DNA of 64,000 nt, from assembly GCF_003334385.1 (NCBI RefSeq), contig NZ_QOWN01000003.1. One strand, given 5' to 3'. The position numbers and the translations under genes are program-made. Below the pieces are notes generated by a model that made no database searches, was not told the DNA's origin, and saw nothing but the letters and a program-made list of their open reading frames with translations. Shown here in pieces: positions 8,822-12,265 of this stretch (position 1 is its first letter; each line of letters opens with the position of its first letter). The stretch is from Escherichia coli. GTDB lineage: Bacteria; Pseudomonadota; Gammaproteobacteria; Enterobacterales; Enterobacteriaceae.

Positions 8822-10324
8822 TTACGCTACGGCTGCTTTCGCCGCTTTGTCTGCAGCGTCATCCTGCGTCATGCGGTGCAGTTTCGGCGCGGTCAGCAGC
8901 ATCAGTACTGCAATAACGGCAGTAGCGACACCAATCTGCAAGAATACGCGACCATAGACTTCCAGTGACATCAGCGGATCGGTAACGTTATCCGGCACAG
9001 CCATCATACCCGCAACATAACCACCAATCAGGTTTGCACCGGCAGTGGTCAGGAACCAGCTACCCATAATGAAGCCCATCAGACGCTGCGGAACGAGTTG
9101 AGCAACCATTGCCAGACCCAGACCAGAGATCATCAGTTCCCCGATGCTCTGCAGGCCATAGCTTGCGACCAGCCAGCTTACAGACACGATACCAGCGTCA
9201 GACGCGAATTTCGCACCCAGCGGCAGAATCAGGAACGCACCAGAACACATCACCATGCCGATTGCAAACTTGGTTGGCATCGGCAGGGTATCGCCCATCT
9301 TGTTATAGATAGCGGCCAGAATCGGACTACCGATGATGATCCAGAACGGGTTCAGTGCCTGATACTGCTCAGGTTCTACGGCCAGACCCAGAATGGAGTG
9401 CTCAACGTTACGAATCGCAAAGAAGTTCAGTGACGTTGGCATCTGGCTGTACAGCACGAAGAAGATAATGGCTTCGAGCATCAGGATGAAGGCAACGATC
9501 ATTTTACGACGCGCAGCACCTTTCATCGCGAAGGCTTCTTTACCGAAGATAACCACGATACCGAAGGCAACAACGCCCAGCGCCATACGCGCAACTTCCT
9601 GATTGTGCAGCAGCCAGGTGGCGATAGCGATCAGTGCCACAACACCAATAATGGTCAGCAGCAGGTTACGGTAGTTGATAGGCTCGAAGTCTGGTTTTGA
9701 ACCGTACTGTTTAACCCAGCGTTGGCAGAAGGCGAAGTTAACGATAGTGATCAGCAGGCCTACAACGCTCAACGCAAACGCAACACTCCAGCCGTATTTC
9801 GCGGCCAGCCACGGCGTAGCAATCATAGAGAAGAAAGAGCCGATGTTGACGGACATGTAGTACATGGTGAATGCACCGTCCAGACGCGGGTCGTTTTTCT
9901 CATAGCATGTAGAAAGCAGAGAAGACGGGTTAGCTTTAAACAGGCCGTTACCGACCGCAATAGCCGCCATACCCATATAAACGATACCGGCGTCGTGACC
10001 AGACCAGGCAACCAGAGCATAACCAATCGCCAGCACAATAGCGCCGAGCATAATTACGCGTTTAGTACCCAGTACCTTGTCACCTAACCAGCCGCCGATA
10101 GCGACCAGACCATAAACCAGGGCACTAAAGGAAGAGAAAAGGGTGATTGAATCCGCTTCAGACATACCCAGTTGTTTAACCAGGTAAACAGCCATAATTC
10201 CTTGTAGGCCGTAATAACCAAAACGTTCCCATAACTCAATCGAGAAGATGAGATAGAACGCCTTCGGTTGTTTGAAAGCGTTCAAACTGACGCTTTCAGT
10301 TGGTTTTTGGTTTGCAGTGGACAC
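8822..10324 (-). CDS. dtpA: Proton-dependent di/tripeptide permease (POT family)
   Basis: 500 aa [39 protein letters not shown]...; matches DtpA (TppB/YdgR). Confidence 0.92.
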
Positions 10325-10908
10325 TTTTACCTCTTTTTTTACATCCCATATTAACGGGGGTGCTTTCTCGCGTTATGTATAAAAAACATACGCGCAATTG
10401 TTATAGTGGGAGGGGAAACGGCAGGTAATGTTCACTATCTTGCACTTTCAGACAAGTCCTTTGTAATAATCTGTTACATATAACTGAGGCGGGGAATTCA
10501 ACCATTCCGGGAAATGTTATCCAGCGTTAAATTTTTCAAAAAACGTAACGGCAGATTTTTTCACTGCACTGAGAGGGGGGTGATGGCTTAACGGCGATAT
10601 GTTCTGCTATTTAGCGTTTTTACTAGTGAGATAGTCCAGTTTCTGAAAAATAGCCAGTGTAATGTTTTGTAGGTCAATATTTGTTGCGTGTGTAAATTTA
10701 AATGATTTTAACCTGATTCTTGCAATGTTTTTACATTGCGACAGCATCGTGATCTTGATCACGAATGAATAGAAAATTTCGCTATTAAAAAAACAATTAA
10801 CCTGCATTTTTGGTTATCCGCAAACGGATTACCTGATGATAACGCTAAGCAATGGCATCATTGACGTTAAAAAGATGTTTTAAAAGAGGATAAAGAAAGG
10901 TTATCAAT

Positions 10909-10934
10909 GGGGTAATCGGTGTTACCCCTTTTCT
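10909..10934 (+). terminator. Hairpin with downstream T-run at the 3-prime flank of nth (plus-strand orientation favoured)
   Basis: GGGGTAA-tcggtg-TTACCCC followed by TTTTCTTC on the plus strand; on the minus strand the U-run is less direct. May serve nth or a plus-strand transcript from the dtpA upstream region. Confidence 0.35.
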
Positions 10935-11570
10935 TCAGATGTCAACTTTCTCTTTGTATTCACAAAGATCTTCAATAATACAAGAGCCACAGCGGGGCTT
11001 GCGGGCAATGCAGGTATAACGCCCGTGCAGGATCAACCAATGGTGGCAGTCGACTTTAAACTCTGCTGGAACCACTTTCAGTAGCTTTTCTTCTACCTGT
11101 TCGACGTTTTTCCCCGGCGCAAATTGAGTACGATTACAAACGCGGAAAATGTGCGTGTCGACAGCAATAGTCGGCCAGCCGAATGCAGTGTTTAATACGA
11201 CGTTGGCTGTTTTACGACCTACGCCGGGCAGGGCTTCAAGCGCAGCACGATCTTCCGGAACCTCGCCATTATGCTGCTCCAGCAAGATACGGCAGGTTTT
11301 GATGATATTTTCTGCTTTGCTGTTATAAAGCCCAATCGTTTTGATATAGGTTTTCACCCCTTCAACGCCCAGTTCAAGCATCGCTGCAGGCGTATTCGCC
11401 ACCGGGTAGAGTTTCGCCGTCGCCTTATTAACACTGACATCGGTCGCCTGAGCGGAAAGCAGTACGGCAATCAGCAATTCAAAAGGCGAACTGAAATTAA
11501 GCTCGGTGGTGGGATGAGGATTGTTCTCACGCAGGCGAGTGAGGATCTCCAGGCGTTTTGCTTTATTCAT
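10935..11570 (-). CDS. nth: Endonuclease III (DNA glycosylase/AP lyase)
   Basis: 211 aa [44 protein letters not shown]... with C-terminal 4Fe-4S Cys cluster; matches Nth. Confidence 0.92.
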   Translation of the reverse strand: MNKAKRLEILTRLRENNPHPTTELNFSSPFELLIAVLLSAQATDVSVNKATAKLYPVANTPAAMLELGVEGVKTYIKTIGLYNSKAENIIKTCRILLEQHNGEVPEDRAALEALPGVGRKTANVVLNTAFGWPTIAVDTHIFRVCNRTQFAPGKNVEQVEEKLLKVVPAEFKVDCHHWLILHGRYTCIARKPRCGSCIIEDLCEYKEKVDI

Positions 11571-12265
11571 CAGACATTCCCTGTTTCACCGTTTGGCAAT
11601 GCACGTTCTGCAGCTGCTTCAGCACGGCGCTTTTTCATTCTTTCATCAATCAGGTATTTTCCTGCCAGCATCAGTCCCAGGCCAATAAATGCACCTGGTG
11701 GCAGCATCGCCAGCAGGAAAGGGGAGTCGGTGTGGAAAATCTCCACGCGTAATACTTTTGCCCAGCTACCTAACAGCGCATCTGCACCGTCAAACAATGT
11801 GCCATTGCCGATAATTTCGCGTAGTGAACCCAGCACGAACATGGCGCAGGTTGCGCCCATACCAATTGAAAAGCCGTCCAGTGCCGAAAGCGCCGGACCT
11901 TTTTTGGCGGCGAAGGCTTCAGCGCGGCCCACAACGATACAGTTAGTGACAATCAGCGGAATAAAAATCCCTAATGATTGATACAGGCCAAAGGCGTAGG
12001 CGTTGATCAGCATCTGTACAGCGCTGACCACCGAGGCGATGATCATCACGTAAATGGGAATGCGGATCTCGGCTGGCGTCCAGTGACGCAGCGTCGAAAT
12101 GGTCAGGTTGGTCAGCGTCAGTACCAGCGTAGTCGCAAGTCCTAAACCCAGAGCGTTAGTGGCAGTGGACGTGACCGCCAACAGAGGACAAAGGCCGAGC
12201 AACTGGACCAGCGCAGAGTTGTTTTTCCACAACCCCTGAACAATAACGTCTTTAATTTCGCTCAC
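11570..12265 (-). CDS. rsxE: Rsx/Rnf electron transport complex subunit E
   Basis: 231 aa polytopic membrane protein ([31 protein letters not shown]...); operon position. Confidence 0.9.

Follow-up and report, generated by a model that had tools for sequence, protein, structure and literature searches.

The nth-dtpA spacer of Escherichia coli: a probable nth 3' region, a gap-free conserved dtpA upstream module and the dtpA leader

The DNA considered here is the spacer between nth and dtpA in a 64,000-nucleotide stretch of the Escherichia coli contig NZ_QOWN01000003.1 (NCBI RefSeq assembly GCF_003334385.1); the whole of this stretch is referred to below as the window. The window is the reverse complement of the MG1655 sequence, and an MG1655 coordinate is obtained as 1723093 minus the window coordinate. 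In MG1655, nth (1711523-1712158) and dtpA (1712769-1714271) are co-directional, with the spacer between them. In the window, the start codon of dtpA is a GTG at 10324 and the stop codon of nth is a TGA at 10937-10935, both on the minus strand, so that the spacer covers 10325-10934 (610 bp). Matches to these 610 bases with an identity of at least 95% occur in 5424 of the 5426 complete E. coli genomes, with no annotated feature beneath them in the genomes matched. A long AT-rich spacer upstream of dtpA had been remarked on in a preliminary description of the window, and it is real: among the 48 intergenic gaps of a 50 kb MG1655 annotation, that of nth/dtpA is the longest, followed among co-directional pairs by one of 390 bp, and the G+C fraction is 0.31-0.43 in the spacer versus 0.45-0.58 in the flanking genes.

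The spacer is probably made up of three ordinary parts: the 3' region of nth, an upstream module of dtpA and the dtpA leader. The locus is ordinary and has largely been described before. What is new is the gap-free conservation of the dtpA upstream module (10424-10804). The preliminary description had also noted A/T tracts typical of OmpR- or H-NS-controlled promoters, an open reading frame (ORF) that looks non-coding and the suggestion of a plus-strand transcript that ends at the 3' end of nth; an OmpR-controlled promoter and the non-coding ORF stand, whereas the plus-strand terminator reading is unsupported. As raised, the description matters little, since it concerns a 3'-end structure of nth and the control region of a well studied OmpR-regulated peptide transporter gene. 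The residual novelty lies in the gap-free upstream module and in the role of its CRP site.

The dtpA-proximal part of the spacer contains the following features, with the core promoter taken from a position weight matrix (PWM) scan.

10455-10450 (-35, TTGTCT) and 10432-10427 (-10, AACATT), minus strand: core sigma-70 promoter with a 17 nt spacer.
10437-10496, minus strand: OmpR peak from chromatin immunoprecipitation with exonuclease trimming (ChIP-exo), containing the conserved sequence GTTATATGTAACAGATTATTACAAAGG at 10458-10484.
10325-10420, minus strand: 5' untranslated region of dtpA of about 96 nt, with the transcription start site (TSS) inferred at 10420.

This promoter is the known OmpR-dependent dtpA (tppB) promoter. 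The published OmpR ChIP-exo peak at dtpA (1710621-1710680 in U00096.2) belongs to the activating class and has its centre at -46.5; it was placed in the window by converting the U00096.2 coordinates. The peak centre at 10466.5 minus 46.5 gives the TSS at 10420. An adaptive A-to-T single-nucleotide polymorphism (SNP) annotated as nth/dtpA (+503/-108) and adjacent to the -10 element raises dtpA mRNA about 23-fold, and it arose repeatedly in long-term stationary-phase cultures (PMC7858067). In the window this SNP falls at 10432 (MG1655 1712661), the first base of the -10 element, and changes AACATT to TACATT. The ChIP-exo offset and the position of the SNP in the -10 element thus agree on one promoter with a 96 nt leader. 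A PdtpA-lacZ fusion that spans -201 to +15 depends on OmpR for its activity, while too much OmpR represses it, and dtpA does not respond to osmolarity; GadX and YdcI have also been reported to act at dtpA. The OmpR-controlled promoter suspected in the preliminary description is thus borne out by published data, namely the activating peak and the OmpR-dependent fusion. In the proposed mechanism, OmpR bound at -40 to -65 would activate the TTGTCT-17-AACATT promoter.

Conserved blocks upstream of this promoter were defined using an alignment of 45 spacers. They lie far upstream of the promoter and at fixed spacing.

10424-10804, minus strand: rigid upstream module of dtpA, a mosaic of conserved blocks at invariant spacing.
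10769-10803: blocks A1 (AGGTTAATyGTTTTTTT) and A2 (GAAAwTTTCTAT), identified by conservation and adjoining the CRP site.
10745-10765: CRP-type palindrome ttCGTGAtcaagaTCACGatg, with its centre at 10755.5 (-335.5 from the dtpA TSS).
10592-10669: block B, identified by conservation, which includes TAGCAGAACATATCGCC.
10510-10535: block D (AAAAATTTAACGCTGGATAACATTTCC), identified by conservation.

Block D may resemble an OmpR half-site. When 381 nt from 33 Enterobacteriaceae species were stacked without gaps, the conserved blocks were reproduced, and there is no insertion or deletion (indel) in these approximately 380 bp. The mutual distances of six anchors are essentially invariant, with 323-324 nt between the CRP site and the -10 anchor and 169 nt between block B3 and the -10 anchor. 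In the roughly 33 of 45 loci that keep it, the CRP site always lies 428-431 nt from the dtpA start. Two control gaps in the same genomes vary in length: the dtpA-gstA gap measures 98-151 nt and the interval between the nth stop and the CRP site 131-202 nt. Length is kept even where sequence is not. The segment 10671-10744 shows about 50% identity between E. coli and its sister species, E. albertii and the close Escherichia relative L002, with its length exactly preserved and with flanks that are 80-90% identical. In this segment L002 and E. albertii appear to resemble one another more than either resembles E. coli, which suggests that the segment changed fast, or was swapped, in the E. coli lineage.

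No three-nucleotide periodicity was found in the module in the stack of 33 species, and on neither strand does any frame that stays open in at least 90% of the species exceed 22 codons. RNAalifold returned no consensus structure on either strand for seven sub-segments or for the whole 401 nt module. Because the length is invariant and there is no coding or RNA-structure signal, the constraint seems to act on the spacing of the DNA. The segment 10424-10804 may thus be a rigid multi-factor cis-regulatory module in which conserved blocks and a high-affinity CRP site (-335) are held at fixed distances, and the fixed spacing suggests a phased nucleoprotein or looped promoter architecture. A more specific version, in which the 380 bp would form a phase-locked switch and CRP with its neighbouring blocks would reach the OmpR-bound promoter through a DNA loop or a wrapped complex, is put forward only tentatively and is on balance doubtful. 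If it were true, selection would have forbidden every indel across many Enterobacteriaceae genera, even where the sequence drifts. A single base change in the -10 element sweeps in starving cultures and dtpA is induced in the gut. The expression of dtpA is thus under strong selection, and an upstream module that is conserved and carries a nanomolar CRP site merits promoter dissection.

The CRP-type palindrome ttCGTGAtcaagaTCACGatg is the only match to GTGAT-N4-ATCAC in the 64 kb of the window, versus 0.06 expected. Its TGTGA-N6-TCACA core matches at 8 of 10 positions in E. coli and at 9-10 of 10 in many other species; about 33 of the 45 loci keep 8-10 of the 10 core positions. CRP contacts RNA polymerase when it is bound at -41.5 to -92.5. 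The dtpA site resembles those of class I and class II promoters in its near-consensus core and in its nanomolar affinity in vitro, but differs from them in that its centre, at -335.5 from the only supported TSS, is far outside this range. No conserved -10 element was found at class I or class II distance from the CRP site on either strand, and a promoter served directly by the site was rejected on these grounds. The exact sequence was listed as a novel CRP site in a Footprint-seq preprint of January 2026, with an inferred dissociation constant of 2.1 nM in vitro, and was assigned there to dtpA. What CRP does at dtpA is inferred. That it drives an E. coli-specific plus-strand RNA stopping at the nth hairpin is less likely than the phase-locked switch.

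In E. coli GZ2408C (locus L086), an ISCro1-like element of the IS66 family, carrying tnpA, tnpB and a transposase gene, lies in the spacer at approximately window position 10722, and the insertion comes between the CRP site and the dtpA promoter. Promoter reporter libraries integrated into the genome have also used the nth-ydgR (dtpA) spacer as their chromosomal landing pad (bioRxiv 10.1101/2020.01.04.894907). The landing pad was taken as neutral, yet part of the spacer is constrained regulatory DNA.

The upstream region of ompF carries the OmpR sites F1-F3 and a distal site F4, with an IHF-assisted loop. Like ompF, dtpA is activated by OmpR just upstream of the -35 element, is activated at low and repressed at high OmpR and has conserved sequence several hundred base pairs upstream. 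It differs from ompF in that the far-upstream factor mapped at dtpA is CRP and not a demonstrated distal OmpR site, in that its repression is seen with a fusion that reaches only to -201, and in its lack of response to osmolarity.

The nth-proximal part of the spacer contains three features.

10909-10928, minus strand: stem-loop GGGGTAATCGGTGTTACCCC, 6 nt past the nth stop, assigned to the 3' end of rsx-nth.
10929-10936, plus strand: T-run TTTTCTTC, the complement of AGAAAA and of part of the nth TGA; judged incidental.
10806-10908, minus strand: variable region downstream of nth, conserved only within Escherichia, with a second variable hairpin.

The stem of GGGGTAATCGGTGTTACCCC has eight pairs, four of them G-C, and a loop of 4 nt. 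A hairpin with a plus-strand T-run had been noted at this position and is indeed present, the scan recovering GGGGTAATCGGTGTTACCCC followed by TTTTCTTC. Four terminator-like sites were found in 10200-11050, versus 0.7 expected from shuffled sequences. In the plus orientation the predicted folding energy is -10.1 kcal/mol and the T-tail score 3.83 (borderline), versus -9.0 kcal/mol and 1.24 in the nth orientation. The discriminant of d'Aubenton-Carafa gives a marginally positive value for the plus orientation and a clearly negative one for the nth orientation. Judged from the K-12-type sequence by itself, an assignment to the plus strand would have been reasonable.

The hairpin and its tails were compared using a scan with the Nth protein that took one genome per species and gave 80 Enterobacterales loci. 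Most Enterobacteriaceae loci have a GC-rich hairpin shortly past the nth stop, often within about 20 nt. In other genera T-rich tails stand on the nth side (scores of 3.67, 3.83, 3.34 and 2.86 for loci L024, L034, L040 and L043, respectively). On the opposite side, high tail scores are confined to E. coli (3.83) and L002 (3.35); the score is 1.28 in E. albertii and about 2.1 or below, mostly less than 1.3, in the other genera in which nth and dtpA are adjacent. The stem carries a compensatory change from G-C to T-A in E. albertii. Among the 5426 complete E. coli genomes, 4006 (74%) contain the exact 50-mer of the window, whereas in 946 (17%) the T-run is replaced by TGATCTTT with the stem unchanged. 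The TGATCTTT allele differs by T to G at 10930, T to A at 10931 and C to T at 10936. The nth stop is thereby polymorphic: it is TGA in the allele of the window and TAA in the 946 genomes, linked to both of the changes that break the T-run. The stem is conserved or compensated and the T-run is polymorphic; selection therefore keeps the stem and not the plus-strand T-run. The T-run is judged to be an incidental by-product of the six A-rich bases between the nth stop and the stem.

In the reading preferred here, the stem-loop at 10909-10928 would form in the minus-strand nth RNA and define or protect its 3' end. It would be a weak intrinsic terminator, or else a hairpin that shields a transcript terminated by Rho. 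The protective role is the more likely of the two in E. coli, because the hairpin has no U-tail when read with nth. Dar and Sorek (2018, PMC6061677) described protective stem-loops of this U-less kind at 3' ends of E. coli transcripts terminated by Rho. The nth stem-loop is like those of this class in that it stands directly past the stop, lacks a U-rich tail (1.24) and precedes a G-poor stretch in which C exceeds G. It differs in that, in other genera, the hairpin at this position carries a fair U-tail and resembles an ordinary intrinsic terminator.

The DNA between the hairpin and the dtpA module (10806-10934 with the hairpin included) would be the rapidly evolving 3' portion of the rsxABCDGE-nth transcription unit. 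No alignment between genera is possible for the nth-proximal 125 nt, and within Escherichia the identity of 10806-10908 is 78-90%. Over the first 78 nt past the hairpin the C/G ratio is 1.78; the G-poor stretch has the excess of C over G of a rut-like region but is mostly U-rich. A second hairpin at 10840-10870 is imperfect in E. coli and has no T-run on either side; L002 (GATGCC...GGCATC) and E. albertii (TGATGCCGC...GCGGCATCA) have a clean GC-rich stem there.

The plus-strand T-run could also be explained by a transcript that starts inside the spacer, divergent from or antisense to dtpA, and that is ended by the hairpin and TTTTCTTC as a dedicated terminator. The folding energy of -10.1 kcal/mol and the tail score of 3.83, as against 1.24 on the nth side, would suit such a terminator, and the AT-rich spacer holds many weak plus-strand promoter-like sites. 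Two defining features of a plus-strand terminator fail, however: a transcription unit on the same strand and a tail that is kept in orthologues. Conservation of the T-run is lacking, and 17% of the E. coli genomes have it disrupted next to an intact stem. The MG1655 annotation has no gene in the nth/dtpA spacer, and no Rfam family was found in 9800-11600 at a permissive threshold other than by chance; the one match, to an Enterococcus small RNA (sRNA), was rejected (E = 0.42, 18 bits versus a gathering score of 94). A scan for consensus promoters found none in the spacer, and the plus-strand candidates from an approximate PWM scan are only weak and lie in non-conserved sequence. The supplements of Adams et al. 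(2021), Yan (2018) and Ettwiller (2016), in versions that may be incomplete, have no entries for nth, dtpA or the coordinates searched; that the term-seq data of Adams et al. show no 3' end at 17121xx-17126xx is a weak negative. The dedicated terminator is quite improbable, and the claim of a plus-strand transcript ending at the nth 3' end is unsupported, given the unconserved T-run and the lack of a plus-strand gene, Rfam match or strong or conserved promoter.

Somewhat less improbable, although still unlikely, is a bidirectional terminator that in most E. coli both ends nth and blocks spurious plus-strand transcription running antisense into nth. The geometry is that of the bidirectional terminators found between convergent genes, with an A-rich tract, a GC stem and T-rich sequence and a complement that is also terminator-like; the exact allele is kept by 74% of E. 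coli genomes, and AT-rich DNA of this kind has weak promoter-like sites on both strands. The locus departs from that class in that E. coli has no convergent gene here, dtpA being read in the direction of nth. With its poor nth-side tail the element is not symmetrical, and the T-run on the plus side is unconserved, being free to vary both across Escherichia and within E. coli.

A third proposal joins the hairpin to the CRP site. In it, CRP would activate a plus-strand sRNA of about 140 nt (approximately 10795-10936) from a class II-like promoter with TATTAA at 10783-10788 as its -10 element, the RNA ending at the hairpin and T-run. It has in its favour a high-affinity CRP site about 40 bp upstream of a possible -10 element, conservation that begins at the CRP site and breaks off at about 10805, and a predicted RNA that ends in a stem followed by U4CU2. 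The candidate -10 element is poorly conserved, however, and no high-scoring PWM promoter lies there. The body that would be transcribed is not conserved between genera, and only E. coli and L002 have the terminator tail. No such sRNA is annotated in MG1655, the most heavily screened genome, and there is no Rfam match. The folding z-score of the putative plus-strand RNA (-1.9) is matched by that of the minus-strand RNA (-2.05), so that folding does not discriminate between the strands. Compared with the genes of Hfq-type sRNAs, the candidate fails on a conserved body, a conserved tail, Rfam and annotation, and the proposal is very improbable.

The spacer also contains ORFs.

10607-10807, minus strand: ORF66, 66 codons with an ATG start, non-coding, overlapping blocks A and B and the CRP site.

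That one of these ORFs is a small protein gene, whether ORF66 on the minus strand or the ORFs of 36 and 25 amino acids on the plus strand, is effectively refuted. The ORFs exist, and all five E. coli sequences that were compared keep the frame of ORF66. It is interrupted in relatives, however, by a stop at codon 39 in L002 and by a frameshift in E. albertii, and all four of the E. coli polymorphisms inside it are non-synonymous. No NCBIfam match was found for ORF66 or for the two plus-strand ORFs, and the spacer has neither a conserved open frame nor the periodicity of coding DNA.

Several points weigh against the division of the spacer preferred here, into an nth 3' region, a dtpA module and a dtpA leader. 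The plus orientation of K-12-like sequences scores as a borderline intrinsic terminator and the nth orientation does not, and plus-strand transcription in K-12 is possible. The region past the hairpin is 78-90% identical within Escherichia, versus about 50% for neighbouring 10671-10744; because of this higher conservation, an Escherichia-specific function on either strand is possible there. The CRP centre at -335.5 is too distant for classical class I or class II activation of the known TSS. Finally, both Rho dependence at nth and DNA looping at dtpA are inferred.

A relic of a lost convergent gene was considered as the source of a plus-strand terminator and was rejected, since tblastn found no remnant of such a gene in the E. 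coli spacer. In Kosakonia, Phytobacter and Enterobacter sp. EA-1 the nth-dtpA gap is long (loci L009, L022, L012 and L049). The ORFs were read in two of these four loci, and both have an extra gene for a predicted membrane protein of 141-152 amino acids that is convergent with nth (4143-4601 in L009 and 4140-4565 in L022) and ends 4-7 nt from the nth stop. The spacing of the dtpA module is preserved in the long-gap loci.

Within dtpA itself, at 10272-10310, a C/A-rich run (CAAACCAAAAACCAAC) in the first 20 codons is followed by an 8 bp hairpin (GAAAGCGT...ACGCTTTC), and the scan flagged a terminator-like site here on the plus strand. The run may resemble the sequences with which GcvB pairs.

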